Shown here piece after piece: positions 1 through 25,544 of a DNA stretch of 64,000 nt. Origin of the DNA: Desulfosudis oleivorans (GTDB taxonomy: Bacteria; Desulfobacterota; Desulfobacteria; Desulfobacterales; SURF-7); assembly GCA_020723325.1 (NCBI GenBank), contig DYJD01000003.1, positions 167,822 through 231,821 on the forward strand, written 5' to 3'. The notes beneath the pieces were generated by a model. It was not told the origin of the DNA. It saw only the letters and a program-made list of their open reading frames with translations, and did no database searches. The number at the start of each line of letters is the position of its first letter. Within the stretch, counting starts at the first letter, position 1. The position numbers and the translations under genes were made by a program.

Positions 1-668
1 AATGCGGCTTCATTATAATGGTAAGCAGGCGCTATCAAATAAGCCGGCGGTGATGCGGAGTGAACCATGGCATTCAACCCGTTATACCAGTCAACGACAT
101 TGCGTTTTTCGGACAAGGGCCACAGCAGATCCAGAAACAAACCTGCCCTGGTTTTTAAATCCGGGATCTCCATCTTTTCCCGGAATTCCGCCCAGGTATA
201 AAAATGGGGTTCGAATTCATGCGGTTTCCGGTAAATCGGGTGGAGCAGATTCCGGTTGAACATCCACGGCTCGATATTGATCACCGCGAGCGATGCGGAT
301 TCCAGCAGGAAAGGATTTTCCCGGCAGAGGACCAGCGCCTCCCAGAAACTGCCGGAATCCATAGACAGGTTCAGGACACCGGCGGGATCGATATTTCCAA
401 GTTGCGCGAAAAAATCGGAATTGATGCAGGACACAAACCTGGAACTGCCCAGGAAAATGATTTTCGCTTGGCCGGTATGATGATTGCGAAGAAAGGATGA
501 AACCGGTGTTATCATGGAGCGGGGGGCGATGGTCTCCAGATAAACGCGGTTTTTCGAAATCAACAGGCCGATGCAGACCAGCAGGGCCAGGACTAAAAAG
601 AACACCCGGTTCGGCCTGGGAAATTCCGCAAGCGTATCAAAACTGAAAATAGATGAACGGCTGGACAT
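1..668 (-). CDS. hypothetical membrane-anchored protein, 3' end outside window (possible DltD/SGNH-like partner of the upstream MBOAT gene)
   Basis: Absent from the ORF track because it has no stop inside the window. My own minus-strand translation from ATG 668 (alt. GTG 605) reads MSSRSSIFSFDTLAEFPRPNRVFFLVLALLVCIGLLISKNRVYLE...AKIIFLGSSRF...INIEPWMFNRN... and stays open to position 1. It has one N-terminal hydrophobic helix and overlaps the MBOAT stop by 32 nt. Confidence 0.45.
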   Translation of the reverse strand, partial: MSSRSSIFSFDTLAEFPRPNRVFFLVLALLVCIGLLISKNRVYLETIAPRSMITPVSSFLRNHHTGQAKIIFLGSSRFVSCINSDFFAQLGNIDPAGVLNLSMDSGSFWEALVLCRENPFLLESASLAVINIEPWMFNRNLLHPIYRKPHEFEPHFYTWAEFREKMEIPDLKTRAGLFLDLLWPLSEKRNVVDWYNGLNAMVHSASPPAYLIAPAYHYNEAA

Positions 669-2064
669 AACTTTCCCCGATAAAGGATACTATCAGAATC
701 AATATGGTATAAGTCAGACTCTGCCAAACCCAGTGGGTGCTGCTTGTCACGAGCAATTCACGCTCAGCCAGATATTGTGGAAGATCAAGTAAAAAAGTGA
801 ACAGTAGATAAAAGATCGTCACATACAGCAAGGGCGAATTTGGATGTGCCCAATGGGCGGGATTGAATACCCTCAACAAATAAGTACTGGCAGTACGCAA
901 GTCCGGAGACCTGAAAAACACCCAAATGAAACTCGTAATATGAAAGGTGAAAAAAATGCTGATACCGGAAATGGCCGCCGAACTCCATTTCCGGCTGTTT
1001 TCCCGGATCACCATTTTTGTCGAGTCCTTGAATATCCTGTAAGCGGCAAGACAGGCTCCATGCAAGCCCCCCCAGATGACAAAGACCCAAGAGGCCCCAT
1101 GCCACAATCCCCCCAAAAGCATGGTGATCATCAGATTCCGGTACATGTTCCATTTTCCTTGCCGGTTTCCCCCCAGCGGGATATAAAGATAATCCCGCAG
1201 CCATTGGGACAACGAGATATGCCACCGCCGCCAGAACTCCACAATATTTTTAGAGAAATATGGTTGTCTGAAATTGATCACCAGGTCGATGCCCATCAAC
1301 TTGCTGACCCCCCGGGCAATATCGCTGTACCCGGAAAAATCGCCGTAAATCTGAATCGCAAAAAGATAGACGCCGCATAAGAGATCCAGACCCATCTGGC
1401 CGCCGCAGTTCTGGTATAGACTGTTGACAAACGGCGCCACCGCATCCGCGATGGCGATTTTTTTTTACAAAACCGATCAGGATCAGTTGAATACCGGCGC
1501 TGACATCCTCCCGCCTGACGATTCTTTTGGACTGTAACATGGGAAGAAGATGTCCGGCTCTTTCAATGGGACCTGCCAAGAGCAATGGGAAAAAACAGAT
1601 AAACAGCGCAAATGAAATGATATCTTTTATGGCTGTCTGCTTTCCCAGATAAACATCGATGATATAGGCCATGGCCTGAAAGGTATAGAAACTGATGCCT
1701 AAGGGCAGAATGATTTTCAAGGTGGAAGTCAGCGGAGAAAAACCCAGGATTTGGAAAACATCCGAAAGACTGTCGATGAAAAAATGATAATATTTGAAAA
1801 AACCCAGGAAGCCGAGATTGAGGATAATTCCAATGATCAGAAGCGTTTTCTTCTTATTCCCGGCGGCTGTCTGGATTCCAAAGGCAATGACATAGTTGAC
1901 CGTAGTGGCAATGACGATAAGCGATAGGAACCGGTAATCCCAGTACCCGTAAAAAAATAACTCGCAGCAATCAGGAAAATGTTCTGAAACCGTGTACTCA
2001 GCGAGTAATAGACCGGCAGCACAACAGCAAGAAACAAGATGAAAACCCAAGAATTGAACAACAT
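637..2064 (-). pseudogene. MBOAT-family membrane O-acyltransferase (AlgI/DltB-like), reading frame broken twice at homopolymer runs
   Basis: Three consecutive minus-strand ORFs (2064-1837, 2050-1250, 1440-637) together spell one MBOAT protein. N-terminus: MLFNSWVFILFLAVVLPVYY. Middle: YGYWDYRFLSLI...ISFYTFQAMAYIIDVY...LLAGPIERA. C-terminus: FWRRWHISLSQWLRDYLYIPLGGNR...LLGGLWHGASW. The frame switches map to the A7 run at 1951-1957 and the T9 run at 1458-1466 (plus-strand numbering). Confidence 0.8.
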
Positions 2065-2290: not shown

Positions 2291-3676
2291 TTATCCGACA
2301 ACCTTGGAGCGTTCGATCTCGTTTTTCATTTGGCGCAGCCTTTTGGCCTTTACTACTACGGCTTCCAGTACTTGCTGGTGTTTGGGGGTTATCCAGGGGC
2401 CTTCGACTTCGATATCGGCATAGGGAAAGTCGCTTTTGGCCGAAAGGGTCTGCAAGATGGTCCGGGCCTGAATGGAGGGTTGGCAGTTGAATATGCTTAA
2501 ATGCACCAGGCCGTCAAAGCCGCCCGACTCTACAGAGCATAGAAAACGGCCGACGGTTTCGGTGGCTTCATGATACAGGACACAGGAAGTAAATTTATCC
2601 CCTGCTTTTAGAAGGTGGAGATGGGGAATATGTGCATCGTAACAAAGTCCGGATTTTTTGGCGATGTTTCGAAAATAGATGCTGAGTATGTCCGCCAGCA
2701 GGATGGTCACCCGGGAGACCACCGCCTCATAAGCATCCTTGAAGGGCCGCTTGGGGTTCAGGAACGAGCGCAACAGGGGCCAGATATTGAAGATGCTCAA
2801 GCGATTCCCCCCCAGTCTAAAGCCGAAACGGTTGACAAAGGCGGATTCCATATGCAGGACAAATTCACTCATGTTGACTACCTTGGGAATAATATCGTAC
2901 TGAAGGAAATAATCGATGGGCGGTTGATGGATCACCGCTGAGCTGCCGCTGCCGAAAATAAGTACCCTGGGTGTTTCCGCCACGTTTTTTTTCAGGGGGA
3001 TCCGGGCGACATTTTTTGCCCAGGCTGTTAACGCAAAAGGCAACACGATGAGGCCGCGGCGGGCTCTTTGGATGAACTTATCAGTCTCGGCCTTGAACGC
3101 GGGCATGGCTGTTTCCGCGTTTTCGGCAACCACTTTCAAACAGTTTTCCGCTTCTTCCAACAGGTCTCCCAGGATGATGGTGGTTAGAATCTGAATGCCG
3201 AAAAGGGTGCCCTGGCCCATGAAATTGTTATACAGGCTGGGATGACCCGGGAATACGGCGTTGCGCAATTTCAGGCGTCTGGCAAAAACTTCGCTGACCA
3301 GGGGCCAGGCGCCGCTTTGACAGGGGCCGCCCTCTTCCAAGCCGTAATACACGCTGATCTCATCCGGGCCGCGGTTTTCAACAATGTCTTTGTAGGTGCC
3401 GCCGATGATGGTATTGAAAGACAGGCATTCCCGGCCGGAGCAGAGTTTTTTGGCGTACTGCAGCACCTCTGAGTTCAATTTATGGGGCTGCATTCTGGTT
3501 TTCCATCCGCGTTTTTGTAAAAAGCTGTCGATCAATCCCATGGTGGGGGTGATGATGTTGTAGGGAAAGACATGGACCACCCGGGGATCGTTGAACTTCA
3601 CCCGCTTGCCGTCACAATCGATGATGTATTTATAATTCTTGCTTACCTGGGCCAGTTGAAAAGTTTCCGTGCTCAT
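2291..3676 (-). CDS. acyl-CoA dehydratase-related protein (2-hydroxyacyl-CoA dehydratase D-component-like half of the activase-associated module)
   Basis: 461-aa ORF whose ATG overlaps the stop of the upstream activase fusion (ATGA, 3673-3676). The sequence (…AKKLCSGRECLSFNTIIGGTYKDIV…, …GPCQSGAWP…) is of the kind found C-terminally fused to CoA-enzyme activases in Firmicutes. The family assignment is from memory, not from a search. Confidence 0.5.
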   Translation of the reverse strand: MSTETFQLAQVSKNYKYIIDCDGKRVKFNDPRVVHVFPYNIITPTMGLIDSFLQKRGWKTRMQPHKLNSEVLQYAKKLCSGRECLSFNTIIGGTYKDIVENRGPDEISVYYGLEEGGPCQSGAWPLVSEVFARRLKLRNAVFPGHPSLYNNFMGQGTLFGIQILTTIILGDLLEEAENCLKVVAENAETAMPAFKAETDKFIQRARRGLIVLPFALTAWAKNVARIPLKKNVAETPRVLIFGSGSSAVIHQPPIDYFLQYDIIPKVVNMSEFVLHMESAFVNRFGFRLGGNRLSIFNIWPLLRSFLNPKRPFKDAYEAVVSRVTILLADILSIYFRNIAKKSGLCYDAHIPHLHLLKAGDKFTSCVLYHEATETVGRFLCSVESGGFDGLVHLSIFNCQPSIQARTILQTLSAKSDFPYADIEVEGPWITPKHQQVLEAVVVKAKRLRQMKNEIERSKVVG

Positions 3677-6645
3677 GATGCGATTCTTTCTTCATAGGGT
3701 TTGGCTGTGTTGCGGTTTTGTTCGGCGATGATATCCAGGAAAGCGCCGATGCGGGTCTCAAAGCCGGCGTGGGCCGTGTGGGCATCGATTTCCAGATAGC
3801 AGAAGGTTTCTCCGGCAAGTTCCTCGCGGAATTGATGATACATGATGCCGTCCGGCACACAGGAAAAGCAGGACATCATGCACAGGTACAATCGGGGATA
3901 CTCCTTGATATAAGCCAAGGCGTTGGTGACCTGCTGGGTAAAATACCAAACATTTCTAGAGTGGGTTGTTCCATTGAGATTGCGCTGGGGCAGCATGTCC
4001 AGCGGAATGACGTTGTAACCCCGGCTGGTGATTTTGCGCGGCAAGGCCAGATTGGCTTCGGCCGAGCAGATGATGTAGGGTTTGGCCGCAATGACCACCG
4101 TGGGCTCATGGCGCATTTTGGCCAGCATGGCGCGGCCGAAGGCCTGGTAGCGCGTCTGAAAAATCCCGTAATATTCAAGGGCTTTTTGGGCGGCCCGAAT
4201 GCCTTCCTTGGTTTTTAACCCCAGCTTTTGGGCCAGGCGCCCGATTTCGTTGATCAGCCCCTTGATTTTGGCAGCGGAAAAGGCCATGTGGGGTGTGAGC
4301 AATTTAATGCTCAGGCCTTCAAAGGCATCGGCAAAGGCCTGACCGATGAGTTCCGGAACAATACCGGCATTGGCGCAGAAATAGCTGTTTTCAAAGGCGC
4401 TGGGATTGGCCCCGTCCAGAATGAAGGGCATGAATACGTGGTCCACACCACGCTGCAATAAGTCATACACGGCGCCATGGGCCATTTCACAGGGGTAGCA
4501 AATATCGCCGCCGGTCTTGAGATTGCCTGGCTTGGAAGGCTTGGACAACACCACATCATAACCCAATTCGGTGATCAGCCGGGCGTAAAACGGAAAAAAC
4601 TCGAAGGTGGACAAGACCATGGGTATGCCGATGGTGCCCCGGGGGTTTTTCACCGGTTCCGGCCCGAATTCTTCAAACATGATCTTGTTCCTGGCGGCGA
4701 TCATGTCCGTACCTTCAACCAGGTCGTCTTGGCGATGGCGGCTGAGCTCATATTTCGAGCACAACCCGCCGAAGGGATAGGTTTTTTCCCGGATGCTGAT
4801 GCGTTTGATTTCACATTTGTTTTCACAAGTTTTACAAGCGAAGGTGCCCTTGACTTCCATGGCGCCTTTTACCAGATTCTCCAGGCGATAATGGATTTCC
4901 GGCACATCCCCGTTCCGCAGCAGATCCCGTGTGAGCAGACCGTTGCCGATACAGCCCATGAGTTCCGGATGGCCGGGGACCACGATGCGGCGTCGGGTCA
5001 GGGCCGCCATGGCCAGGGCCACCGAGCGGTTCAACGCCACCCCGCCCTGAAAGAGCAGATTTTCGCCCACGGAGCGGGTGCCGACGATGCGGGAGATGTA
5101 GTTCATGGCAATGGAATAGACCAGGCCGGCCACCACATCCTCCGGTAGTGCCCCTTGTTGCAGCGCGTTTCTCAGGTCCGTATTGATGAAGGCCGCGCAA
5201 CGTTCGCCAAAGGAAATGGGTTCCCGGGCCGATTCTGCCGCGGCACTGATGGCGGTCACCGGAATACCCATATCCACGCTCACCGATTCTTCCAGGAAAC
5301 TGCCGGTTCCGGCTGAACAGCCCTCGTTCATGGCATAATCCACCGGCACGCCTTTTAAGAAAGAAATGAATTTGGAGTCCTGCCCGCCGATTTCAAAGAC
5401 CGTATCCACTTCCGGGACTTCCTCGGCCGCGGCCCGGCCGTGGGCCAATATCTCGTTGAAGCTTAAACAATTATCCAGATAAACCGAAACCAGTTCGCGG
5501 CCGGAACCGGTTACCGCCGCCTGGATGATCCGGATGGGCTGGTCACCCACCTGTTGGATCAATTCCTGCAAACATTTTTTGGTGGCCAAAACAGGATTGC
5601 CGTGGGTTCGTAAATAGCAACCGGCGCCGATGCCGCCTGCGGCCACATCAAACAATACCGCCTTGGTGGTGGTGGAGCCGGCATCCACGCCCAGAATATA
5701 GCGCCGGTTGCCTTCGATCCGCATTCGGTCACCGGGTTGCACGCGATAATCCAGCAGGGCCTCTGCTGTTGAAAGGGGCGGCAAAACATCAAAGGCGCTT
5801 CTGTGGATATTGAAACTGGTGCCTGCTTTCCGTCCGGCAGAGGGTTCGGCGTTTTCAGCAGCGTGCAGATAGGCGCCGAAGGCTTCCAGGCAATGGCTTT
5901 CATCCAAAATGATCAGCCTGGAATGGTTGAGCTGCCGGCTTAATATTTCCACAAAGGGTTCATTCAAGGTCAGCCCGCCGGCCAGGACAATGGTGTTCAG
6001 GGGCCAGCGCGCGAGTTCGAGCATTTTACAGATTTTTTGGCTCAAATCCACAATCAGGGATTTGGCGATGTCGGCCGGCGTGCATTCGCCTTTATTCAGC
6101 TTATGGGTGGCATCCGACTTGCAGTACACCGAGCAGCGCGCGGCCAGGGGAACAAGGTTGCCCTTTTTACTGGCCTCGATTCCTTCCGCAAGGGTAAAGT
6201 TCATGCGCTGGAGTTGCTGGACCACGAATTCACCGGTGCCGGCCGCGCATTTGGAAGAGGAAATGACATTCCTGATTTGTCCGTCTTTTACGGTGAGGAC
6301 GGTGAATGTTTCGCCCCCCAGGGACAAGACGATATCCGGTTTGAGATGATAATGGGCCAGGGCTTTTTCAATGCATTCGGTTTCCGGTATATACGGCAGG
6401 CTCAGCATGTTTTTGGCGGACTGGCCGGTGACCATGATCCGGGCCCCTTGGGCGGCAGCCAGCTCGCTGAAGATCTCCTGGAGCTTCTTTGAAGGATTGC
6501 CCTCGTGGCGGATGACTTGTTTTTCCAGGGTTGCATGGCCGCCGCCCCGGACGCGCTTGACCGATACGGCGCCGATTTCAATGCCTTCATACCAGGCCGC
6601 GCTGTTTTCATTCTTGATGAGCGTTACGTTATTCATTTTAATCAA
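3673..6645 (-). CDS. CoA-substrate-specific enzyme activase fusion: two BcrA/BadF/HgdC-type ATPase domains plus C-terminal activase-associated (DUF2229-like) domain
   Basis: 990 aa. The second ATPase domain has a canonical YILGVDAGSTTTKAV phosphate loop. Both domains carry the cluster-ligand motifs of HgdC-type activators: SKCAAGTGEF + ARCSVYC, and EGCSAGTGSF + ERCAAF. The C-terminal part begins TFACKTCENKCEIKRI and contains IGIPMVLSTFEFFPFYARLITELGYDVVLS and GGDICYPCEMAHG. The start is TTG 6645 or ATG 6636, only 26-35 nt after the PKS stop. Confidence 0.8.
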   Translation of the reverse strand: MIKMNNVTLIKNENSAAWYEGIEIGAVSVKRVRGGGHATLEKQVIRHEGNPSKKLQEIFSELAAAQGARIMVTGQSAKNMLSLPYIPETECIEKALAHYHLKPDIVLSLGGETFTVLTVKDGQIRNVISSSKCAAGTGEFVVQQLQRMNFTLAEGIEASKKGNLVPLAARCSVYCKSDATHKLNKGECTPADIAKSLIVDLSQKICKMLELARWPLNTIVLAGGLTLNEPFVEILSRQLNHSRLIILDESHCLEAFGAYLHAAENAEPSAGRKAGTSFNIHRSAFDVLPPLSTAEALLDYRVQPGDRMRIEGNRRYILGVDAGSTTTKAVLFDVAAGGIGAGCYLRTHGNPVLATKKCLQELIQQVGDQPIRIIQAAVTGSGRELVSVYLDNCLSFNEILAHGRAAAEEVPEVDTVFEIGGQDSKFISFLKGVPVDYAMNEGCSAGTGSFLEESVSVDMGIPVTAISAAAESAREPISFGERCAAFINTDLRNALQQGALPEDVVAGLVYSIAMNYISRIVGTRSVGENLLFQGGVALNRSVALAMAALTRRRIVVPGHPELMGCIGNGLLTRDLLRNGDVPEIHYRLENLVKGAMEVKGTFACKTCENKCEIKRISIREKTYPFGGLCSKYELSRHRQDDLVEGTDMIAARNKIMFEEFGPEPVKNPRGTIGIPMVLSTFEFFPFYARLITELGYDVVLSKPSKPGNLKTGGDICYPCEMAHGAVYDLLQRGVDHVFMPFILDGANPSAFENSYFCANAGIVPELIGQAFADAFEGLSIKLLTPHMAFSAAKIKGLINEIGRLAQKLGLKTKEGIRAAQKALEYYGIFQTRYQAFGRAMLAKMRHEPTVVIAAKPYIICSAEANLALPRKITSRGYNVIPLDMLPQRNLNGTTHSRNVWYFTQQVTNALAYIKEYPRLYLCMMSCFSCVPDGIMYHQFREELAGETFCYLEIDAHTAHAGFETRIGAFLDIIAEQNRNTAKPYEERIAS
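3691..4848 (-). other. activase-associated C-terminal domain (DUF2229-like)
   Basis: aa ~600-985. Contains a C-x2-C-x3-C motif (CKTCENKC) followed by conserved IGIP...FFPFY...LGY.VVLS...CYPC blocks. Confidence 0.55.
4921..5700 (-). other. activase ATPase domain 2 (BcrAD/BadFG-like, canonical)
   Basis: aa ~316-575, with LGVDAGSTTTKAVLFD, EIGGQDSKFI, NEGCSAGTGSFLE, GERCAAFINTD and LFQGGVALN. Confidence 0.75.
5860..6588 (-). other. activase ATPase domain 1 (BcrAD/BadFG-like, degenerate phosphate-1 motif)
   Basis: aa ~20-262. GIEIGAVSVK replaces the usual G-x-D-x-G-S-T-x-x-K. The Cys motifs SKCAAGTGEF and ARCSVYCKSD are retained. Confidence 0.6.
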
Positions 6646-6671
6646 CCGTCTTTATGAGTTTCAATTGCATA

Positions 6672-9600
6672 TTATTTCCCCATGGAAGCAAGCCGGGGAA
6701 TCCATTTGCCATCCAACGCCGCTGATATTTTTTGCGAGACAGACCCCGGCCGCGGCCGGCCCGGCAGTTTTCCCCTGGTCGTCATTTTCTTGATGTATTC
6801 GTACTTCATCTTGTTCACCAATTTTTCTTTGGGCGTGTTCTTCTGGATATAATTCACGGCCAGGCAATATTTCATATAGGTTTCCATCAAGGCTTGATTG
6901 ATGCGCGGGCAACGGATGCCCGCCTGCTCAAGGATTGCGGCTGTATAGGTGGCGTCGGCATAGGTGCTTTCATTATGGGGCATCATGGCCGGATTGAATT
7001 GCAGCAGATCCGCGGTCAGGGAATCATATTTGCGGATGTAATCCAGGGAGGCTTTGAATTCGTCAATTTCCAGATAGTTCAACCCGAAACCGCAACCTGC
7101 CAGCAGGTCCATGATTTCCTTGAATGTTTTAGGATGGGGATTATTCAAATGATAGGTCGCGAACACGGTTTTTAATTGGGTGGAAAGGTACACCAGGCTC
7201 TGCCCCACATAGTCGCTGGGGGCGATATCAAAAAATTGGATGGCATTGACGGCGATCTGGTTTTTTACCACGGTTTTAAAAATGTCATAAAAGATCCCTG
7301 GTACTTGGGATTTGCCCAGGGGATAGGTTCCCAGGCGGCTGTCCCCCATGATATTGCCGGGCCTGGCGATGATCCAGCGTAGACCGTGGCCGTGGGCCAG
7401 GCGCACCAGCTTTTCGGCTTCGTATTTGGAACGCGCATAACCGAGATTCTCAAAGCCCTGGCCCACCTGGAAATCCTTTTCCGTATAGGGCCTGGATGCC
7501 GTGAACTGCCGGTCCCCCATGACCACATAGGAGGAAACAAAGACAAAATAGCGTTGGGCGGTGTTTAAGCAGAAATCGATCATGTGCCGGGTGCCGTCCA
7601 CATTGACGACTTTCAACTCCCGGTAGTTCCCGTGCAAGCTGGTTTTGGCGGCACTGTGGATCACCATGTCAACGGATTGAGCCAATTGATGGTATTCCTT
7701 TGCGCTCATTTTCAGATCCGGCTGGATCACGTCACCGACAACCGGGATCACCCGTTGTTCAAACTGTTCGCTCAGCCGCTGGTTCGGGCTATAGATCTGC
7801 AACATCGCGCGGATGCGTTTTTTAGCGTGTTCACGATCCTGGGCTCTGACCAGGCAATAAATCGTGCTATCCGTGTTTTCCAGGAAATCCTTTACCAGCC
7901 TCCCGCCCAGCACACCCGTGGCCCCGGTCAGAAGAATCCGCCGGGTTTGCAGTTCCTTGGCCTGGTGAACAGCGGGAGGGAACAGGTCCGCCTGGTTTGC
8001 TAAAGTGATGGGAATTTCCGGTTGCTCCAAGAATCCGAATTTGTCAGCGGCCGGGTGATCATCATCCGAATCAGCACTCCTTGTTGCGGAATCCGGCTTG
8101 TTTGGCGGGGATGCTTTTTGGGCATCGATGCGCCGGGCCAGCTCCTCCATGCTGGAAGTTTGGATGGATTCGAGGGCCAGCTTGATTCCAAAGGCTTTTT
8201 CAATTTCATTGGCCAGGCGCATGCTGGTGATGGAATCCAAACCATAATCCGCCAAGGCCGTGTCCAAACGGAGGCTGGCTTTATTGATCTTTAACAGGCT
8301 GGAAACTTTTTCCACCAGCAGTGGAACTGTCCGTGATTCAGCCCAAGCGGTTTTCTCAAACCGGATTTCCGGTTGGCGGGCAGGCACGGTTTTGGGAACC
8401 GGCTCCATTCGACTTGGGGCCTGGTCAATGCTTTCAACAGTTATCCAGCAGCGCTCCTTGGCAAAGGGGTAGGCCGGGGCGGAAATCCGGCGCGGCCGCA
8501 GGCCCGGATACAGCAAGTGCCAGTTGATATCCAGGCCGGAAACCCATAGTTTGGCCAGTTTTTGAAATTTTTTGCTGTGGATGATGCTATTGAGAAAGGA
8601 AAGGCCCTCTTCACCATCCAGCAGAAGATCCAGGTCGGTTCCTACACCGCCGTCGCTGTTGATCCAAACCTGCTCAATGTTATGCTCCCCCAGGCAATAG
8701 GCATTCAGCTTGCCGGCCAGATCATCCCAGCCGGAGACGAGCAGGGCGAGTCTTGCCGGCATGGCTTCGCGGCCCACTTGGAAAGTATAGCAAAAATTCG
8801 TCAGGGTTAAGCCTGCGGGCATTATCATGTGAGTTGCAGAGGCAGTCACCCCTTGGGCGGTTTGTTTCATCAAACCATGGTCTTTGAAGAAGTCCAGGAT
8901 GGTTTCCGCATAAGCTTTCAGCCGCTCGGAATTCCTGGCCGAAAGCACGAAGATCCAGGTGCCCAAGGCCGGGTCGGCCTGCTGGACATCATCCCCGGTT
9001 TCAAATTCCTCCACGATCAGGTGGGAATTGGAGCCGCCGGCACCAAAGGAGCTGATGCCCGCGCGCCGGGGGCCGGCGGCATTTTGGCCGTTTTGGGAAA
9101 TCAGCGGCTTTTTCCAGTCCGATAGTTCCGCCTGAAGGTGGAAGGGCGAATTTTTAAAATCGATAAGGGGGTTGACGATCTCGGCATGGAGGGAAGGAAC
9201 CAGTTTTTTGTGCTTCATCTGCAGGATGACTTTGGTCAAGGCCGCCATGCCGGCCGCGGATTCCAGGTGGCCGATATTGGATTTAACCGAGCCGATGGAA
9301 CAATAGCGCTGCCGGCGGCCATCACTATCCTGGGACGGCATGCCTTGTTCAAAGGCGCTGATCAAACCGGCGATTTCGATGGGGTCGCCCAGCGCTGTTC
9401 CGGTGCCGTGGGCTTCCAGGCAACTGATGGTGCGCGGGTCGACATTGGCGCGCTTGAAGGCGTTCAGGATCACCCGGCTTTGGGCCTTGGGATTGGGCAC
9501 TGTGTATCCATTGGTTCTGCCGCCGTGGTTCACGGCGGTGCCTTTGATCACGGCCTGGATGTTGTCGCCGTCGGCTATGGCCCGGCCAAGGGGTTTCAGC

Positions 9601-12600
9601 AATACGGCGCCCACACCTTCACCGGGAACGTAGCCGTCACCACCCTGGCCGAAACTGCGGCAGCGACCGTCACCGGCGATGAAATTCCCCAGGCTCAGCA
9701 GGAGATATTTATTGGGATGGAGGGAGAGGTTGACCCCGCCGGCCACGGCCATGGTGCAGTGGCCGCGCTGAATGCTCTCGCAGGCCAGATGAACGGCGCT
9801 GAGGGATGACGAGCAGGCCGTATCCACCGCCATGCTGGGGCCGGAAAAATTGAAAACATAGGAAACCCGGTTGGCGATGCTCCAGTAGCTTGACGAGGGC
9901 CGGACACCCTGGCCAAACATTTGATATTCCCCCCACATGACCCCCACAAAGACACCGACGGTTTCCTCGGAAAGGCTTGCGCGGGTGTGGCCCGCATCTT
10001 CCAGCGTATGCCAGGCGGTCTGAAGGAACAAGCGCTCCTGGGGGTCCATGTATTCGGCTTCCCGGGGTGAAATATTGAAAAACAAGGGATCAAATTTGTC
10101 CGCATCCTGGATGAAGCCCCCCCATTTGCTTTTGCTTTTTCCCGGCTGCGGGGCGTTTGGGTCGTAGAACTCCTGAAGATCCCAGCGCTCCTTTGGAATT
10201 TCCGTTATGCAATCTTTTCCGTTCACCAGGTTCCGCCAGAAGATCTCCACATTGTCTGCCAGGGGATATCGTCCGCTCAGGCCGACAACGGCGATATCCT
10301 CGTCCGCTGCTTGAGGGTTTTGGGCCGTGGCATGACGGAATTGATTTACCGGTTTTGGATTCATTGGAGAAGATTCCGGGGTTTTTACTTCCCGCAGATA
10401 AGTGTTTTCCGGACTTTTCAAGGCTGCCGGCGGATTTTGATGCCCCATGGTTGCAACCACCTTTTCAGGATGACGTTTGATAAAATAGTCGGCCAAATCG
10501 ACAAGATTGGAATATTCAAAAAAAAGCGTTTTGGGTATTTCGCCGAAATGCTTTTCCAATCTCACATTCAGCCGCATGATCATCAACGAATCGATTCCGA
10601 ATTTTTCAAAGGGCGTGTCGGCCCGGACCCTGGCTGGATCGAGTTTGGTCGCGGCGCACAGCTCTTTTTTCAAAAAGTCGGTCAGCCGTTCCTTCCATTC
10701 CATTGGTGTTGATGAAAGGTCCGGCGCGGCGCCTTTGCCAAAAACCTCAAGGCCGGAAACGGCCGGTTTTTCTTCCTTCCGGTTGAAAAGCCCCTGCTCC
10801 TGTTCCATGGGGGCACTTCCTGCAATTACAGCAAGCTGGGGGCCTTTATAGGTCAAGGCATATTCAAAGGCCTGGATGCCGGCTGCTGAATTCAAGGACA
10901 AAAGCCCGAAGACTTCTTGAAAATGGTTTTGCAGGGCCGCAGCATGGCCCATACCGCCCTGTTGCCACAGGGGCCAGTTTATGGCGAGGGTTTTTCCATG
11001 GCGCCGGCCTTTGCGCCGCAAGCGTTCCCGCCACACGGCAAAATGATCGAGATAACTGTTGGCATAGGCGTAATCGCTTTGGCCGCTATTGCCGAACACT
11101 GCTGCCAATGACGAAAACAGAATAAAAAAATCCAGGTTTTCATTTTTGGTAAAAACATCCAGATAGCGCGTGCCCGACACCTTGGGCGCCAAAACCGCTT
11201 GAATTTCGGCTTTGGTTTTTCGCAGAACAAAGGCGTCCTTGCTCACCCCGGCGCAATGCAGGATGCCGTTGATGGCGTGATGTTTTGATTTGACTTCCGC
11301 GACCAGACGTTTCACTTCCAAGGGTCTGGCGATATCGGCTTGGATGTATTCCACGGTGGCCCGGCCCCAATCCATTTGGGAAATACGGGCTGAAATGTCC
11401 GGGCTGAATTTCGAGCGTCCCACCAGGATCACTGTTCCTTGGGTTTTTTTCGCAAGGTATTCGGCAAATATCATTCCCAGGCGACCGGCACCGCCAGTGA
11501 TCAAGTAAATGCCCTTTGGGCGGAAGGCAATTGCAGAGGATGGGCCGTCCGCCTCCACCGGTTTGAGTGCTTTGGTATAGCGGTGGTCATTAAGATAGCG
11601 GATGTCGGCCGGTTCTGAGAAGGACATTTGAAATTCATTTACAATCAGCCGGGCCGTTTGCCAAGGAGCCTTGTTCACGCCTTGGCCGGAAGTAGTTTTC
11701 AGCGTGAGGGTTTTATAGCGGTAATTTGGATTTTCCTGATAAATCGTTTTGACAAGCCCGGACATGGCGGCCCAATGGGGGGCCATGTCCGTTTGTAATG
11801 GATATACATAGATCAGATCGACCTTGTTTTGCAGCCTGCTTGCCATCAGTGCCTGGGTTAAGAAAAAGACGGAATAAAAACCATGGGCCAAGCGGCGGCC
11901 CAATGCTGCCGGGGCCCGGCCGACCCTGGATTTGCTCCAATTATGAATGATTCCGATGCGGCTTTCCGGATCAAGGCCCAGAACCTTGATGAATTCCCCG
12001 TAGTTTTCACTTTCTTCCGGATTAAGGCTGAAATGACTTGCCCCTTTTTGCTGAAAGCGTTCATCAGCAGTAACCAGGATGATTTTTATCGCAAGGTTTT
12101 GGTCTTTCAGGAGTTGTTCCAAAGCATCCCGGAGATCGCCATCCGTATCCAGCAGCAGGATGGTTTGCAGGTTCTTGATTTCCGTGGTTGCAATTGTGCT
12201 TTCCGCTTTTTTCCATAGGAAATGGTAGTAGTATTGGGGCGGGTTGTCATCCCATGCTGGGGGTTCCTGGATCGCTTTAACACAAAAATTTTTGATGGAA
12301 ACCAGGGGATTGCCCTCAATATCCAGCAGGCGGATATGGAATTTCTTAACCTCGGCATGCAATTGTCTACCACTGTCGGCAACGGTGGCGTAGGCAAAAC
12401 AGGTTTCCGGCAATTCCCCCAGGATTTCCAACTCCTCAATTCCCATGGGAAGAAATAATTTTTCAGAATGGGCGCCGTTACCCTGGGACAGCAAGCCGAT
12501 CACGGTTTGAAAGGCGCCGTCGATCAAGATGGGATGAAGGGGATAATGTTTCAGGCTCGACTTCAAGTGCTGCGGCAGCTTCAGTTGCGCCAGGGATTCA

Positions 12601-15600
12601 TTGTGGTTGCTGAACAATTCCTGAATGGGTTGAAAATTCGGTCCGTAATTGAGTCCGGCATCGGAAAAGAGCGCATAGCATTCGGAACCGCTCTTGCGCC
12701 TGCTGCAGCGCCCCTTGATGGTTTCAATATCCAGGCCGGCCGGCTGATATCGCCGGTCATACACCAGCCGGCCCTTGGAGAACATTGTCGCCCCATCCGG
12801 ATCTGCTTCCGTGCTGAATTGAAACCGGGCGGCATTTTCTTCAGATGATAAATGCAAATGCACTTCCCGGGGGGCTGCCGCAATCTGAATGGGCCTGGCC
12901 CAAACCACATCCTGCAGTTTGCGCACCCGTCCATCCTTGAACTGTTCCGCCAACGCACGCGCCATTTCAAGATACATGGCGCCGGGCAGCACTTTGGCCT
13001 GGCCGATTTTATGATCGGCAATGTAAAATTCATCGCCTTTAACTTGGAGCGAATACTTGTTTGCGCGGGCGTCAAAGGCGTGGCCCGCACCAAATGCTTG
13101 AAACACGGAATCCATTTCAGCCGCAGCAGGGGCAATGTTGTCCGCGGCATCAGCGGCCTGGACCCAATAGCGGGTCTTGGCAAACGGATAGGTCGGCAGC
13201 GGCATGCGCTTGACCGCTTCGCTGCCGTGCAAGCGCCGCCAATCGATCGCCCGGCCGCTTACCCAGCTTCGGGCGATTGCAGGCAAATCCCCATAATCAA
13301 CAGGGGCGTTTCCGTCCGGCCTTTGGGTGTCTTCATTTAGGCCTGGATCATGGGCTTGAACCCTTCCCTTGAAAAAGCGTTCATCCTGGAAATCATCCGT
13401 GTTTAAATACGCACGCAGCAACCCGGCCAGTTCGGTCTTGCTTGCGACCAGCCATGCTGCTCTTGCCGCCATGGCTTCCCGGCCGCTCTGCAAGGTCCAG
13501 GCCATGTCCGCCAGTGAAAATCGGCTTGGATCGTCCGGCCCGGCTTTTTCAATAAAGTCCAGCAGGTCTTCCACATAGCAGCGCAGCCGGGCTTCATCCC
13601 CGGCTGACAGGATGATCAGTTGCTTGGATGGAGTGGCCGGCCGGGTTGCGCCTGGGGCGGAGTCAGCCGGAATGATATATTCTTCCAAAACCGCATGGGC
13701 ATTGACACCGCCGAAGCCGAAGGAGCTGATGCCGGCCCGGTGTGGAATCTCTTGATTCTTTTCATCACGGAGCCGGTCCCAGGTTTTGGTTTTTTCCACA
13801 ACGTAGAAGGGCGTATCCGCAATATCGATATAAGGATTCAGCTTTTTGAAATGGATGCCGGCCGGCAGTTTGCCGTGTTTCAGGGCCAAAACCAGCTTGA
13901 TTAGCCCGGCGATCCCGGCGGCGGTCTCCAGATGCCCGATATTGGTTTTCACTGAACCCAGCCCGCAGCGGGCTTCCCCGGCAAAGGCTTTGTTCCCTTG
14001 GGCATACAGGCGGCTGAAGGCCTTGACCAGGCCTTGGATTTCAGCCGGATCACCAAGGGCCGTCCCGGTGCCGTGGGTTTCAATATAGGTTATGGTGGCG
14101 GGATCGATCCCCGCTTTTTCCACTGCGTCCACAATCAGGGCCGCCTGGGCATTCACATTGGGCGCGGTGATGGACTGGGCCTTGCCGCCATGATTGACAG
14201 CCGTGCTTTTGATCACGGCGTAAATAAAATCCCGGTCTTTTTCCGCCGCAGCTAATGGCTTGAGTAAAACCGCACCCACGCCTTCACCACGGACATAGCC
14301 GTCGGCAGCCATATCAAAGGTTTTGCATTTGCCGTCCGCGGCCAACATGCCGGCACAGTTGAAGGCAATGTTCAGGGTGGGGGTCAGCATCACATTCACG
14401 CCGCCGGCCAGGGCCATGGAGCAGGTCCCACTGCGGATGGCCTCAACCGCCCGGTGCAAGGCCACCAGGGAGCTGGAGCAGGCGGTATCCACCGGCTCGC
14501 TTGGGCCGTGCAAATTCAGCATATAGGAAATACGATTGGCCAGGATGGAATGGGAAAGCCCGGTGGCGGTATAGGCATCCACCGGAATACCGCTGTTGTG
14601 GACGAGCTCCGCATAATCCGAGGTGCCAACACCCACAAAAACACCGATCTTCATGTCGGCAAGACTTCCGGGCCGATAGCCGGCATTTTCAATGGTGTGC
14701 CACGCGGTTTGCAAAAAAAGCCGCTGCTGGGGGTCCATCAACTCCGCTTCATGGGGGGTGATCCCGAAAAACCTGGCGTCGAAAGCCGCCACATGGTCCA
14801 TGAACCCGCCCCATTTGGCCGTGGTTTTGTTGTTTTCCTTGAGGGGCGTACCATAGCGGGCCTGCCAATCCCAGCGCTCCTTGGGAACGACGCTGATCAG
14901 ATCATGACCGCATTCAAGATGATTCCAAAAGGCCTCCAGATCCTTTGACTGGGGCATGCGCCCGCTTATGCCGATGATGGCGATGGCATCCGCCTGCTGA
15001 CCGGTCTTGAATTCAGCGGCGGCCCTTGAGTGGGGGAGCTTCTGTTCCCGGACAGGCGCCGGCTTTGTCAGGTGATTCGTCACCAGGTAATGACCAAAGG
15101 CGGCCAGGCTCTGATGCTCAAAAAACACGGCCGGTTTCAATGCCACCCCATATTTCCGGTTGACTGCCGTTGTGATTTTGATCAAGGCAAGGGAGGTGAA
15201 GCCATATTCGCCGATGTTTCTTTCAATATCCAGTTCTTGGGGTTTTATTTTCAGTACGCCGGCGGCAATCCGCCTGAGTTCAGCCAGTACTTGGCCTGGA
15301 TCAATCACCGGGTCCGGCCCTGAACCATCGGGCTGGTAAGCGCCGGTGGAAAATAATTCCTGGTCAATCAGTTTTGCCAGGCGCTCCATGCCCTGATCAA
15401 ACTCACCGGCCAAATAATCCTTGCGAAGCTTGGCGCGCTGCAATTTGCCGCTGGTGGTTTTGGGAATGCGCTCAACGGGGATGATCTGTTTGATGGTGAT
15501 TCCGATTTTGGCCTGAATGCAATGGTGCAGCTTCACAGCCAGGGGAACCATGGCGTTAAGGTTCATGGTCTTGTCGGCGATGAAGACAAGCAGTTCGTCT

Positions 15601-17993: not shown

Positions 17994-18224
17994 TCAAACA
18001 TGGAATGGGTAGGGACTACCACAAGATCTTGCTATGTTTTGAAACAGCAACAACAAAACATAATGCTTCAAAACAGAGCGACATTCCTGTATAAATGCTG
18101 CCGCACTGCTGATTTTAGATTAAAATAGTGCTATATAGCAGAAAAAACAAATGAATTTAAAAATATGAAATCCCCTGGGATGGCTTGTATTGAAATAGGG
18201 ATGGAGAGTCAATATGAAAAAGTG

Positions 18225-18252
18225 TTTCATGAAAATTTCTGTTTTAACATGA
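18225..18252. promoter_or_regulatory. candidate operator, site B: TTTCATGAAA-a-TTTCTGT-tttaa-CATGA, ~230 nt upstream of the PKS start
   Basis: Contains the perfect 10-bp palindrome TTTCATGAAA plus TTTCTGT plus a second CATGA half-site. The same composite motif is found at 20576-20603. Confidence 0.4.
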
Positions 18253-18332
18253 AATATAAATGCATTTTAAAACAGAGGTAATGCTCAGATAACTAGTCCG
18301 CAGGCTGAAGGATAGAATATTCACCTGGGCAG

Positions 18333-20570
18333 TTACAGATGCATGGCCCCATGATCAATATGATGGGTAAATAACAAGTAGCGCTCTGCTTGGACTCGTT
18401 CCCCTTGGGTATAGGGGCGCGAGCCGTCCAGATGTGACACGCAGCGTTCTATTTTCGCCAAGGAGTCGGAAAGCTGCCGGATGAACACATCCAGCGATGA
18501 CATTTCGCCATGAAACCGTGTGAAAGAGTAAATGTAGAGTTTGTCCTTTTGGTTTTTTTTCGCGATCTCAATCGCTTTTTCTAGAATTTTAACAGTATGT
18601 CTGCCGGTAGCCGCGGAGCGGATGGGATAAAAATCCCAAAGAACGGCTGCGAAGCAAAAATAAATCGTCGGCCGGTAGGTGTCCAAGGCCACGGCATTGT
18701 CATGGGTTTGAAATGCTTTTAAAAGGGCCAGATCCAGTTCTGGAAGTTGTTCTTCAACCGGGGCGGTTTCCCGCAGCCAGCCCATGGCATACAACATGTC
18801 CAGGGCCGGCTTTCTGGCAATCTCGATGGGAATGCCGATGGGCTTTTCAGGGTTGACACAAATATCCTGGTCATAGGCCAGGATGCGCTTCAGAATGCGG
18901 ACGCAAATCAGTAAATAAACCGAACGCGTGCCCCGGGGAGAGACGGACATGCCTTTTTCAAACAGATCCTCGGCCGCATTCAGGAAGTCAAACACGCTGG
19001 AAGGGTCTATGTGAATATCAAAATCCACTGGTTTGCCGTGCTGCTTGCGGATAAAGCGCAGGTTGGTGATGGCCTGGGTCAGTCGCAACACTGCAAACTC
19101 AACATAAAAATCCTCGTCCAGGGCCTTGCAGTTGGACAGGATGAAGGCCGCCTCCTTTTCAGCGCGCCGGAAATGGGCCGCGGCCACCGAATAGGCGATT
19201 GCGTTTGAGCCCAGGTCCCGATAAATCACCATGCGCAGGGAGCGGGCGCTCAAATTGGTCGGATTGGTGCTTAGAACAATGCGCAGTATTTCCAAGGCTT
19301 CCCAAAGTTTGTTGCGGAAGTAAAGTGTTTTGGAAATTTCAACCCCCAGCAGCGTGTTTTGCGGGGAACGCATCAGGGCTGTGACGGCATTGGTATGATT
19401 TTGATATTCGATTTTCGACCGGGAGCAATAGGCGCTGTCTAAAAGGGTTCGTAAAAGATCGGAGTTTGAAACCGCCTCGTCTTTTAACAGGCCGGGAATG
19501 AACGGCCAATAGATGGAACTCCACAGCCCGACAATCCACCAGATGCTTAGCAATTCGCCGTTGAACAAGGAAATTTCTTTGGGTTTGTTGTTGAAAATGG
19601 CGCGGATATCATTGATTAAAAGGCATTGCCTGGCAAAATCGGTAACCCGGATGACCGGATCGCCTGGAAGTCTCGCACTTAAAAGGGGTTGAAGATAATT
19701 ATCAAGGGTGGTGAAATTGCCGGCGGCGATGCCGATGGATAAAAAACGCTTGGGGCTGGCAAAGGGCGAAAGGGCCCATCTGACCGCCATTTGATGCCCC
19801 ACGGAAGTGGCGTTGCGGATGCCTTGCTGATAGCAAGACAGGTCATGGATGCCCTCCTCTTTTGGAAAATCAACATACAGGGTGGTGATATCATAGACCC
19901 TTACCGCTCCCCATTGTCCGCCGGGCGCCACGGTCAGGCCTTCCTTGATAAACTGTTTTAAATCCTTTTTCAGCCAGATAATAATATCTTGTTCAATGAT
20001 GTCCCCCCGGCTGATCAGGGAAAGGCCGATGCGTACGCCGTCTTTGGCGCTGACCGGGCGGTCGCTTTTATGGCAGATTTTCATTAGGGCCGCGTAATTC
20101 CAGCCCAGATTCAATTCGCTGCGCTCATACCCAAGCCAAAAGGCTAAGCTGCGCAGGACGTTCTGCTTGTGCAGGGTGTCGGCCGGCTCTTGCTTGATGC
20201 GGGTCAGCATGGTGTTGCTGATTTTGGGCAGGGCGATATCGAATTTATCCAGCAGGGCATTGATGCGGGCCACCAGGCCGCGACCGGACAAGCCGGTTTG
20301 CAGAAAATCCTCCTTGTTGTCCAGCAGGGCCTCCATGGTGATATTCCGGGGCAGGTCTGGATTGGATCTGTGCTCAACGTTGTTTTCAAGCCAATCCTGA
20401 AATGAGTCCCTGGTGTTGTCTGAAATGATCCCTATGTTTGCGGCAAAGGCGATCAAGGATTCCAGGACCCGATCAGCACCTTCACCGGTTAAAAATTCTT
20501 CATATTCCTGCATTGTCGGAAAAATCGCGAGAATTGCCGACATGGCTTTGATTTTCAAAGTGACCTCCAT
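18333..20570 (-). CDS. large orphan protein with putative XRE-like helix-turn-helix (candidate cluster regulator)
   Basis: 745-aa ORF directly upstream of the PKS and in the same orientation. Residues ~95-148 (…LPKISNTMLTRIKQEPADTLHKQNVLRSLAFWLGYE) fit the XRE/Cro HTH pattern. The remaining ~600 aa are helical with no motif I recognise. No obvious SD precedes the first ATG. Confidence 0.45.
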   Translation of the reverse strand: MEVTLKIKAMSAILAIFPTMQEYEEFLTGEGADRVLESLIAFAANIGIISDNTRDSFQDWLENNVEHRSNPDLPRNITMEALLDNKEDFLQTGLSGRGLVARINALLDKFDIALPKISNTMLTRIKQEPADTLHKQNVLRSLAFWLGYERSELNLGWNYAALMKICHKSDRPVSAKDGVRIGLSLISRGDIIEQDIIIWLKKDLKQFIKEGLTVAPGGQWGAVRVYDITTLYVDFPKEEGIHDLSCYQQGIRNATSVGHQMAVRWALSPFASPKRFLSIGIAAGNFTTLDNYLQPLLSARLPGDPVIRVTDFARQCLLINDIRAIFNNKPKEISLFNGELLSIWWIVGLWSSIYWPFIPGLLKDEAVSNSDLLRTLLDSAYCSRSKIEYQNHTNAVTALMRSPQNTLLGVEISKTLYFRNKLWEALEILRIVLSTNPTNLSARSLRMVIYRDLGSNAIAYSVAAAHFRRAEKEAAFILSNCKALDEDFYVEFAVLRLTQAITNLRFIRKQHGKPVDFDIHIDPSSVFDFLNAAEDLFEKGMSVSPRGTRSVYLLICVRILKRILAYDQDICVNPEKPIGIPIEIARKPALDMLYAMGWLRETAPVEEQLPELDLALLKAFQTHDNAVALDTYRPTIYFCFAAVLWDFYPIRSAATGRHTVKILEKAIEIAKKNQKDKLYIYSFTRFHGEMSSLDVFIRQLSDSLAKIERCVSHLDGSRPYTQGERVQAERYLLFTHHIDHGAMHL

Positions 20571-20603: not shown

Positions 20604-20721
20604 TAAAACAGATATTTCACGAAAACACATAAAATATTTGACATGATTCATGATACACCATAGTAGCCTTAGACAAAAAAATCAAACTGAATTTTTCGAA
20701 AAAACCCCAGGAGAAGCGATT

Positions 20722-21922: not shown

Positions 21923-22336
21923 ATGGGATTATTTGCCAATAGTGAAGATTTTGAAAAGGTGATTGTCGGTTTTTTCAACCTGGTGGCCGAGACCCCGGAG
22001 GTCGCGGATAAACTGCTGGCCTCCAAACTGGTGATCCGCTTCAATTATCATGATCCGGAAGTGGTGGTGGTGGTGGACTGCTCCCAGGAAAAAATCCAGG
22101 TACGGTCAGGCGACAAAGAGGCCCAAGCCATTGTGGAAATGAGCATGAGCGCGGATATCGCGCACAAGTTCTGGTTCGGCAAGGTCAACTTGACCATGGC
22201 CCTGGCCAGGCGGCAGATGATCGCCAAAGGTCCGGTGCCGAAAATATTAAAACTGCTGCCGGCCATCCGGCCGACCTATACCATGTATCCGCGGTATCTG
22301 GATACAAGCGGGCACAGCAACTACAATGTTCATTAA
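21923..22336 (+). CDS. SCP2 (sterol/lipid carrier protein-2-like) domain protein
   Basis: MGLFANSEDFEKVIVGFFN...VIRFNYHDPEVVVVVDC...FWFGKVNLTMALARRQMIAKG has the typical SCP2 fold signature. GAAAGGAAG lies upstream of ATG 21923. Confidence 0.7.
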   Translation: MGLFANSEDFEKVIVGFFNLVAETPEVADKLLASKLVIRFNYHDPEVVVVVDCSQEKIQVRSGDKEAQAIVEMSMSADIAHKFWFGKVNLTMALARRQMIAKGPVPKILKLLPAIRPTYTMYPRYLDTSGHSNYNVH

Positions 22337-22352
22337 ACAAGGAGGGCAATTC

Positions 22353-25531: not shown

Positions 25532-25544
25532 AACAATGCGATCG

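Follow-up and report, generated by a model that had tools for sequence, protein, structure and literature searches.

What would a pair of apparent radical-enzyme proteins do directly behind a polyketide synthase (PKS)? The question is raised by a stretch of 64,000 nt from Desulfosudis oleivorans (GCA_020723325.1, contig DYJD01000003.1, positions 167,822 to 231,821 of the forward strand), which is called the window here and to which all positions given below refer. On its reverse strand, a PKS gene is followed by genes for a 990-aa protein and a 461-aa partner (together, the pair), and the three genes form one apparent operon, judging from their arrangement. The assignment of the pair to the ATP-driven radical-enzyme superfamily of benzoyl-CoA reductase (BCR), 2-hydroxyacyl-CoA dehydratase (HAD), and DCCP is supported by the sequences and by a structural model. 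In the reading that we favor tentatively, giving it a little less than an even chance of being right, the pair would be a dedicated tailoring reductase or dehydratase for the product of the adjacent PKS, with chemistry like that of PlsA/PlsR or Ger performed after release of the chain. The observed basis of this reading is the gene order, the domains, the fold, the cysteine patterns, and the clade-specific conservation with the PKS. The genes and their first junction are as follows.

6672..17993, reverse strand: open reading frame (ORF) of the PKS, 3773 aa, from the ORF list.
3673..6645, reverse strand: ORF of the fused activase and D-domain protein with PlsA-like "BBD" architecture, 990 aa from a TTG start (Pfam/NCBIfam, phmmer, alignment, and Foldseek).
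2291..3676, reverse strand: ORF of the partner, 461 aa, with a predicted HadB/BzdO/DCCP fold, a remote PlsR homolog (AlphaFold2 with Foldseek, and cysteine alignment).
6646..6671, reverse strand: junction between the PKS and the 990-aa gene, 26 nt long if counted to the TTG and 35 nt if counted to the ATG at 6636, from the sequence.

The ATG at 6636 is the start used by gene callers and gives a protein of 987 aa. At 3676-3673, the sequence ATGA holds both the start of the partner gene and the stop of the 990-aa gene. A scan of the 6646..6671 junction for terminator-like hairpins found none. An earlier note, made from the sequence alone, had placed the 990-aa gene 26–35 nt past the PKS stop on the same strand, had seen the ATGA overlap, and had put the pair in the same operon as the PKS; the coordinates agree with the first two statements, and the tight, hairpin-free junction speaks for the third. 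We count these short same-strand junctions without a terminator as support for dedicated tailoring. A promoter-like TTGAAA-18-TAAAAT in the junction between the PKS and the 990-aa gene was rejected as a candidate, since the regional frequency of such matches equals the chance rate and the match ends at the start codon.

The order of PKS, 990-aa homolog, and partner is found in seven distinct loci: the window, two metagenome contigs (L002 and L003), and the genomes of four Sporomusaceae, namely Dendrosporobacter quercicolus, Sporomusa ovata, Sporomusa sp. KB1, and Methylomusa anaerophila. In L002 and L003, the 990-aa proteins are 71% identical to that of the window, and a PKS lies directly upstream. 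The Sporomusaceae loci were found by a search with the C-terminus of the PKS, consisting of ketosynthase (KS), acyl carrier protein (ACP), and thioester reductase (TR) domains, in which full-length matches were taken and their contexts looked up. This search overturned the outcome of the first adjacency test, in which the link had seemed confined to three contigs. The Sporomusaceae PKSs are of trans-AT type (AT, acyltransferase) and end in (DH-)KR-ACP-KS-ACP-TR (DH, dehydratase; KR, ketoreductase), and their terminal 1.7 kaa are collinear with the window PKS over KR-ACP-KS-ACP-TR at 40–42% identity. Their BBD proteins (970–976 aa) are 58–60% identical to the window protein, and the partner (452–474 aa) is encoded next after the BBD gene. 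In the related PKS-linked loci, the next gene starts 17–160 nt past the PKS stop. In Sporomusa and Methylomusa, the pair is flanked within the cluster by the PKS on one side and RND efflux genes on the other; the downstream genes of Sporomusa sp. KB1 also include those for a stand-alone AT and a phosphopantetheinyl transferase, and in D. quercicolus and both Sporomusa loci the partner is followed by a NudC-like NUDIX gene. Conservation across all seven loci is limited to the PKS and the pair.

Two observations on these loci should be added. The partner of Sporomusa sp. KB1 is split into ORFs of 221 and 222 aa (L088/L089, 12934–14333) in the NCBI and JGI assemblies alike, which may reflect a pseudogene or a genuine split. 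A conserved protein of 176–183 aa is encoded after the partner in L002 (14634–15185) and L003 (7892–8422); the two copies are 85% identical, match no Pfam family, and have no counterpart in the window.

The earlier note had also suggested that a fixed association with a PKS would give the fused activases a context. Such an association holds within the clade of seven loci, which spans two very different lineages; it does not hold for the family at large. No PKS was found near the pair in 72 other loci taken from species-representative genomes (35–64% identity in the best aligned segment), 51 of which extend at least 1.5 kb upstream. The 990-aa family is very large, with 6757 matches among 8000 scored candidates, the best 120 of which are 56–100% identical to the window protein. 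The neighbors of 50 non-PKS loci are heterogeneous, with no lipid-synthesis genes and no consistent functional context; the commonest is a TrmO-like gene (16 of 99 scanned neighbor ORFs). The pair is absent from the eight loci, all generic trans-AT PKSs, that a metagenome scan with the PKS C-terminus returned. Not all TR-ending relatives are accompanied by the pair: none is seen within the short visible flank of L086 and L087, and L092 has an iron-type alcohol dehydrogenase (Fe-ADH) gene after the TR.

In neighbor-joining trees, the seven PKS-linked 990-aa proteins are monophyletic with respect to 24 non-linked homologs (197 of 200 bootstraps), and the PKS-linked partners also group together, more weakly (124 of 200). 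Clade-specific changes were counted in columns at least 90% conserved in the non-linked homologs. Only 2 of 311 such columns are changed in the 990-aa protein versus 8 of 86 in the partner, and some of the substitutions in the partner adjoin Cys119 and Cys398. Their concentration in the partner is consistent with an electron-delivery machine that was kept and a substrate pocket that was re-tuned. The subfamily to which the window belongs also takes in proteins of Asgard archaea, Sporomusaceae, Desulfobacterales, Syntrophaceae, and metagenome-assembled genomes (MAGs) annotated as Deltaproteobacteria; it is marked off from PlsA by a degenerate first ATP loop and by six rather than three conserved DUF2229 cysteines. 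In the searchable literature, no paper linking PlsA/Ger-type or BCR/HAD-type enzymes with polyketide synthases was found. The conserved PKS-linked clade inside a distinct six-Cys subfamily appears new; the kind of enzyme itself is known.

These trees bear on a rival explanation, namely that the pair is an ordinary membrane ether-lipid enzyme of the plasmalogen synthase or Ger type that acts on phospholipids and is merely co-located with the PKS. PKS-linked copies come from two distant lineages and share a clade to which none of the 24 non-linked homologs belongs, which argues against mere co-location and fits inheritance together with the PKS. The position of the pair inside the cluster in Sporomusa and Methylomusa and the clade-specific partner changes beside its cysteines point in the same direction, and the non-linked family members lack a lipid-gene context as well. 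The evidence in favor of this explanation includes the architecture, which is described next with the domains of the 990-aa protein.

5851..6594, reverse strand: ASKHA/HgdC-like domain 1, approximately residues 18–265, with the loop GIEIGAVSVK, Cys133, and Cys171 (BcrAD_BadFG stretch, and alignment with domain 2).
4921..5700, reverse strand: ASKHA/HgdC-like domain 2, residues 316–575, with the loop GVDAGSTTTK, Cys443, and Cys483 (phmmer and Foldseek).
4759..4836, reverse strand: C604-x2-C607-x3-C611...C629, a candidate relay [4Fe-4S] site, invariant in 32 homologs.
3706..4635, reverse strand: DUF2229 "D" domain, approximately residues 671–980, with Cys716, 719, 757, 926, 929, and 949 (PF09989 and alignment).

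BcrAD_BadFG (PF01869) matches the 990-aa protein in two stretches (whole-protein E 1.6e-43), TIGR00241 of NCBIfam matches at E 1.5e-57 (195 bits; cut-off, 125), and DUF2229 (PF09989) matches at E 1.8e-41. The two HgdC/BcrA-type ATPase domains in one chain that had been read from the letters are hence recovered by PF01869 and TIGR00241, and the BcrAD_BadFG and DUF2229 profiles proposed as a check both match. Domain 2 matches HadI (4EHT) at E 3e-28 in phmmer, which also matched MbdQ and HgdC, and its fold resembles those of HadI, MbdQ/P, HgdC, and DCCP-R with TM scores of 0.80–0.89 in Foldseek. Cys443 and Cys483 line up with cysteine positions in the HadI activator sequence, which we take, by analogy with HgdC and HadI, to be the ligands of the bridging cluster. 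Domain 1 aligns to domain 2 at E 1e-10, with Cys133 on Cys443 and Cys171 on Cys483, and all four residues are invariant in the 32-homolog alignment. The two Cys motifs per domain pointed out earlier are therefore present, in register between the domains, and invariant; their role as ligands is presumed by analogy with the known activators.

The phosphate loops of the two domains differ, as had been noticed before: a canonical loop of the form DxGSTxxK is found in domain 2 (GVDAGSTTTK) and not in domain 1 (GIEIGAVSVK). Our joint alignment extends this difference. The first loop is degenerate across the whole subfamily (G[IL]EIGxVSVK), whereas both loops are canonical in the PlsA-type proteins of Listeria and Fusobacterium. 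The C-x2-C-x3-C motif of the earlier description corresponds to C604, C607, and C611, which are invariant together with C629 in the 32 homologs. This CxxCxxxC..C motif is also conserved in the PlsA-type proteins of Listeria and Fusobacterium and in the L071 group.

The cysteines of the D-domain should be noted. C716, C757, C926, C929, and C949 never vary among the 32 homologs, in which C719 reaches a conservation of at least 90%, and all six are retained in Methylomusa and S. ovata. In the same joint alignment, the PlsA-type and L071-type D-domains have just C716, C757, and C929 of the six. The six residues are grouped three and three (C716/719/757 and C926/929/949), and in the AlphaFold2 model the secondary structure of the domain consists of two alpha/beta halves flanking a helical insert. 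In DCCP and BzdN, the [8Fe-9S] double cubane is held by three plus three Cys ligands from two domain halves (PMC7317905, PMC11971306), and the DCCP motif reads CX19CX18-19CX29CX166-170CX32-34CX32C (PMC7317905). The ligand count of the D-domain agrees with such a cofactor and the spacing differs from the DCCP motif; the six cysteines are a possible double-cubane-type site. In the Asgard (Promethearchaeota) loci L011, L014, L019, L030, and L047 (approximately 10001–11030), an additional stand-alone D-domain paralog of approximately 340–350 aa lies directly upstream of the BBD gene and is 21–22% identical to residues 660–980. L030 also has, at 17626–19637, another activase-like copy that is more distant.

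The 461-aa partner was earlier called dehydratase-like. At the level of sequence profiles this does not show: the protein has no Pfam or NCBIfam match even at E 10, the proposed HGD-D family (PF06050) included, and no match among PDB sequences, either as a single sequence or as a profile. Nor was there any signal when the partner and the 990-aa family were compared profile to profile. The fold gives a different picture. An AlphaFold2 model built from 35 homologs has a pLDDT of 90, and its top 19 Foldseek matches in the PDB are all DCCP, BzdNO, HadBC, or MbdON (E 2.9e-6 to 2e-3; TM score of approximately 0.4). C84, C119, and C398 are invariant in the 35 sequences, and in the alignment with the Listeria and Fusobacterium proteins their counterparts in the PlsR parts are cysteines too. 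In BzdO, the [4Fe-4S] catalytic cluster is held by Cys95, Cys128, and Cys380 (PMC11971306), a spacing close to that of Cys84/119/398 in the partner. Because of these fold matches and the BzdO-like three-Cys spacing, the description as dehydratase-like is, on the predicted model, correct at the level of fold and cofactor signature. Of 75 loci, 65 have the partner either fused to the 990-aa homolog or encoded directly downstream of it.

The best of the fold matches is DCCP (6ENO, E 2.9e-6; also 7YYL), which raises a further alternative: the pair might be a DCCP-like reductase of a small molecule or an unrelated metabolite, with a regulatory or accidental link to the PKS. The six cysteines of the D-domain and the heterogeneous contexts of the non-PKS subfamily members would suit this view, and DCCP too works with an HgdC-like ATP-dependent reductase. 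However, the 7-Cys spacing of DCCP (PMC7317905) is not matched in the pair, and the pair adjoins a homologous KS-ACP-TR terminus in a conserved, monophyletic arrangement. DCCP is moreover a homodimer with its seven-Cys motif, whereas the window partner has three invariant cysteines and the six-Cys site lies in the D-domain. We consider this alternative very improbable.

The closest counterparts in layout are PlsA/PlsR and Ger, which consist of a BBD part (two PF01869 and one PF09989) and a second reduction subunit (PMC13159169) and turn lipid O-esters into vinyl or alkyl ethers (PMC9702350, PMC13159169, PMC8788747). The statement of the earlier note that large fused activases are functionally uncharacterized is thus outdated for this architecture, since both systems share the BBD-plus-second-subunit layout. 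PlsA/PlsR is a two-gene operon of approximately 4.2–4.3 kb in C. perfringens (CPE1194/1195) and one fused gene in Enterococcus and Listeria; the window pair also spans approximately 4.3 kb. As PlsA-type comparison sequences, we used proteins from Listeria monocytogenes and Fusobacterium replicons, in which a Pfam scan finds the same layout as in the window pair. In both systems, two HgdC-type domains and DUF2229 are followed by a second subunit of approximately 400–470 aa, adjacent or fused, and both keep the cysteines of the bridging cluster as well as the CxxCxxxC..C motif and the three cysteines of the second subunit.

The differences from PlsA/PlsR are also clear. The PlsA-type proteins are 27–28% identical to the window 990-aa protein over the full length (E approximately 1e-91), which does not reach orthology-level similarity; the Listeria and Fusobacterium proteins are 48% (A part) and 40% (R part) identical to each other, and confirmed PlsA/PlsR proteins are mutually 48–55% and 41–42% identical (PMC12838417). 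The 461-aa partner has no BLAST match to the R parts of Listeria and Fusobacterium, and its link to PlsR is only transitive, through fused Desulfobacteraceae proteins (L070–L073) that are 21% identical to both. PlsA has a canonical first ATP loop and three D-domain cysteines, while the window subfamily has a degenerate loop and six. PlsA/PlsR stands alone, and the window clade is linked to a PKS.

Ger (T. maritima Tmari_0479; D. alkenivorans SHJ90043) shares the BBD architecture with the pair and is active under strictly anaerobic conditions (PMC13159169). It takes the ester carbonyl fully down to the alkyl ether. The tested Ger proteins are fused, of approximately 159 kDa (PMC11150832), whereas the window pair is encoded by two genes; this comparison was made by description only. 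No PKS context is reported for Ger, and Ger and PlsA are currently indistinguishable from sequence alone (PMC13274423). Ger homologs are reported to be widespread in deltaproteobacteria and Asgard archaea (PMC13159169), groups that also hold the closest homologs of the pair. Besides this overlap in taxonomic spread, the view of the pair as an ordinary ether-lipid enzyme draws on the shared architecture with PlsA/PlsR and Ger (PMC13159169), on the family-invariant residues of both proteins, which are kept in the window and the two PKS-linked contigs, and on the six D-domain cysteines, which persist in Methylomusa and S. ovata. Set against the PKS-linked clade, we judge it decidedly unlikely.

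The remaining members of the superfamily resemble the pair in parts. Class I BCR (BzdNOPQ/MbdONPQ) also has an ATP-driven HgdC/BcrAD-type module, and its core consists of an active-site subunit with a three-Cys [4Fe-4S] cluster and a store subunit with a six-Cys [8Fe-9S] cluster (PMC11971306). Cys84/119/398 of the partner resemble BzdO, and the three-plus-three cysteines of the window D-domain resemble BzdN. Class I BCR is unlike the pair in having four separate subunits, an aromatic CoA ester substrate, and a different Cys spacing, and neither the D-domain nor the partner has a sequence-level match to BzdN/O. Among the 2-hydroxyacyl-CoA dehydratase systems HadBC/HadI and HgdAB/HgdC, domain 2 matches HadI (E 3e-28; TM score, 0.85–0.89), and the partner has the predicted HadB/HadC fold. 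Unlike those systems, the pair lacks a PF06050 match and has its activator in two copies that are fused to a catalytic-type domain; genes of a 2-hydroxyacyl-CoA pathway are not found near the pair.

The substrate has to be sought through the PKS. Pfam searches with the whole protein and eight pieces of it give the order AT (GHSLG), FAAL-type AMP-binding, ACP, KS, DH, KR, ACP, KS, ACP, and TR. Both KS domains carry the DTACSS, HGTGT, and NIGH motifs and are catalytically complete, and the TR has the NAD(P) motif GATGVLGG and the Tyr/Lys motif YARSK. Active KS domains, ACPs, KS-linker docking domains, and a terminal TR are all present, as in a trans-AT-type modular PKS with reductive release; the AT is fused at the N-terminus in the window and stands alone in Sporomusa. 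The prediction of the product rests on standard PKS logic. The synthase would be primed by the FAAL domain, and its two modules would be a reducing one (KS-DH-KR) and a non-reducing one (KS). Its predicted product is a twice-extended fatty acid in which the first extension is reduced and dehydrated and the second is kept as 3-oxo. Because the PKS ends in a redox-competent TR, the product would leave as an aldehyde, probably a lipid-like 3-oxo-alk-4-enal or a more reduced form. The predicted chain contains no hydroxyl that needs radical chemistry for its removal, and the removal of an unactivated hydroxyl envisaged in the earlier note finds no obvious substrate in it.

A different timing, the one suggested in the earlier note, is also conceivable: the pair may act on the polyketide while it is an ACP- or CoA-thioester, by ketyl-type reduction of an enoyl or 3-oxo-enoyl group or by radical dehydration. 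The structurally characterized BCR/HAD substrates are all thioesters of a phosphopantetheine arm (PMC7317905, PMC11971306), and the fact that the PKS and the pair alone are conserved in all seven loci would suit such action. The low identity to PlsA-type proteins and the combination of a six-Cys D-domain with a three-Cys partner, which is nearer to BzdN/BzdO than to PlsA, are consistent with it too. On the other hand, the DH, KR, and TR of the PKS itself already cover beta-processing and release, the predicted chain has neither an alpha-hydroxyl nor an aromatic ring, and the neighborhood has no conserved gene for a CoA ligase or a CoA transferase. The BBD-plus-partner layout is, furthermore, that of lipid O-ester reductases and not that of BCR or HAD. 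On balance, action on a thioester appears rather unlikely to us.

For the favored reading, in which the pair tailors the PKS product after release, the cluster content, the electron path, the substrate, and the reaction can be sketched by analogy with the known enzymes. The two HgdC-like domains in one chain would form a pseudo-dimer around one bridging [4Fe-4S] cluster on Cys133/171 and Cys443/483. ATP binding and hydrolysis, probably at domain 2, the only one with an intact phosphate loop, would push an electron uphill through the CxxCxxxC..C site into the six-Cys D-domain, possibly a two-electron store like that of BzdN or DCCP, and next to the putative three-Cys [4Fe-4S] cluster of the 461-aa subunit. 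The carbonyl oxygen of the substrate would bind to the free iron of this cluster and be reduced through a ketyl-type intermediate. The FAAL-primed PKS, with its one reducing and one non-reducing module, would supply the lipid-like 3-oxo-enal freed by the TR, and an oxygen-bearing carbonyl carbon of this product, presented as an ester or hemiacetal derivative, would be converted to an enol (vinyl) ether or a deoxygenated form.

Several observations weigh against this reading. No tested enzyme can be placed in the window subfamily, given the 27–28% identity to PlsA-type proteins and the partner without a PlsR BLAST match, and the D. alkenivorans paralog Ger2 gave no ethers in E. coli (PMC11150832). 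The six-Cys D-domain and the degenerate first loop are unlike PlsA, which suggests that the chemistry may differ as well, and comparison of the D-domain fold with solved structures gave no confirmation. Among the PKS-linked loci, no conserved acyltransferase for making an ester substrate is found. The universal conservation of just the PKS and the pair also fits action on a carrier-bound thioester.

The myxobacterial ElbD route is aerobic, uses AGPS-type chemistry, and has no BCR/HAD-type enzyme. As a functional analogy only, the ElbD-type ether-lipid synthase pairs the activation of a fatty acid with a carrier protein and a terminal reductase, which supply a reduced chain for the ether lipid (PMC8788747).

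The surroundings in the window are described here for completeness. A gene for an MBOAT protein (DltB/AlgI-like; 637–2064, reverse strand) lies approximately 226 nt downstream of the stop of the pair and is split into ORFs 1250..2050 and 637..1440 by a frameshift at an A9 run (approximately 1463–1471). The spacer contains, by eye, a TTGACA...TATTAA-like pattern that is unlisted in the promoter scan. An ORF at 2–655 (reverse strand) overlaps the MBOAT stop, has an N-terminal hydrophobic segment, and runs off the end of the window; it may encode a DltD/AlgJ-like partner of the MBOAT protein. The MBOAT protein was considered as an ester-forming partner of the pair and rejected, being frameshifted, separated from the pair by this promoter-like spacer, and absent from the related loci.

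Upstream, a soluble protein of 745 aa (18333–20570, reverse strand) is encoded 340 nt from the PKS on the same strand and has no Pfam or NCBIfam match. Upstream of the cluster and divergent from it are genes for an Fe-ADH (20650–21897, forward strand) and an aldehyde:ferredoxin oxidoreductase (AFOR; 22326–24230, forward strand). Further Fe-ADH genes come after the pair in L003 (8439–10894) and after the TR in L092 (9991–11199), with 29–40% identity. Fe-ADH was considered as a possible conserved partner: it is present at the window locus, in L003, and in L092, and absent from the visible Sporomusaceae loci. Fe-ADH and AFOR could process the aldehyde released by the TR and are candidates for this role. 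An IS200/Y1-type transposase-like ORF (25509–26099, forward strand) is located in a low-GC stretch (GC content of 0.42–0.47), approximately 7.5 kb upstream of the PKS start and past Fe-ADH/AFOR. Farther away, a beta-oxidation-type set at 54691–63314 (forward strand; enoyl-CoA hydratase, two acyl-CoA dehydrogenases, and 3-hydroxyacyl-CoA dehydrogenase) and a molybdopterin oxidoreductase gene at 44322–46592 fit a fatty-acid-degrading anaerobe.

A more far-reaching possibility, which we offer as speculation and think improbable rather than negligible, is that the PKS-dedicated PlsA/PlsR-like clade performs a tailoring without precedent in polyketide biosynthesis, with ATP-driven chemistry at very low potential and possibly double-cubane equipment. 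In one version, the TR aldehyde and a hydroxyl of a lipid or of the chain itself could form a hemiacetal that is dehydrated to a vinyl ether, a "polyketide plasmalogen" made from the aldehyde side. In another, the conjugated 3-oxo-enoyl system could undergo a BCR-like two-electron reduction. If true, either version would be the first physiological function for the large subfamily of Asgard archaea and MAGs annotated as Desulfobacterota.

Polyketide tailoring in strict anaerobes is poorly understood, and in the searchable papers ATP-driven radical enzymes of BCR/HAD type turn up in amino-acid fermentation, aromatic degradation, and lately ether-lipid synthesis, not in assembly-line pathways. 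The monophyletic PKS-linked clade places one branch of a family that is very large and for the most part unstudied in a concrete genetic context. Its presence in named Sporomusaceae with assemblies (Sporomusa ovata, Dendrosporobacter quercicolus, and Methylomusa anaerophila) makes the hypothesis testable. The six-Cys D-domain suggests that double-cubane-type cofactors may extend beyond DCCP and class I BCR, and the recurrence of the PKS with the pair in unrelated anaerobes points to an undescribed oxygen-free step of polyketide tailoring.

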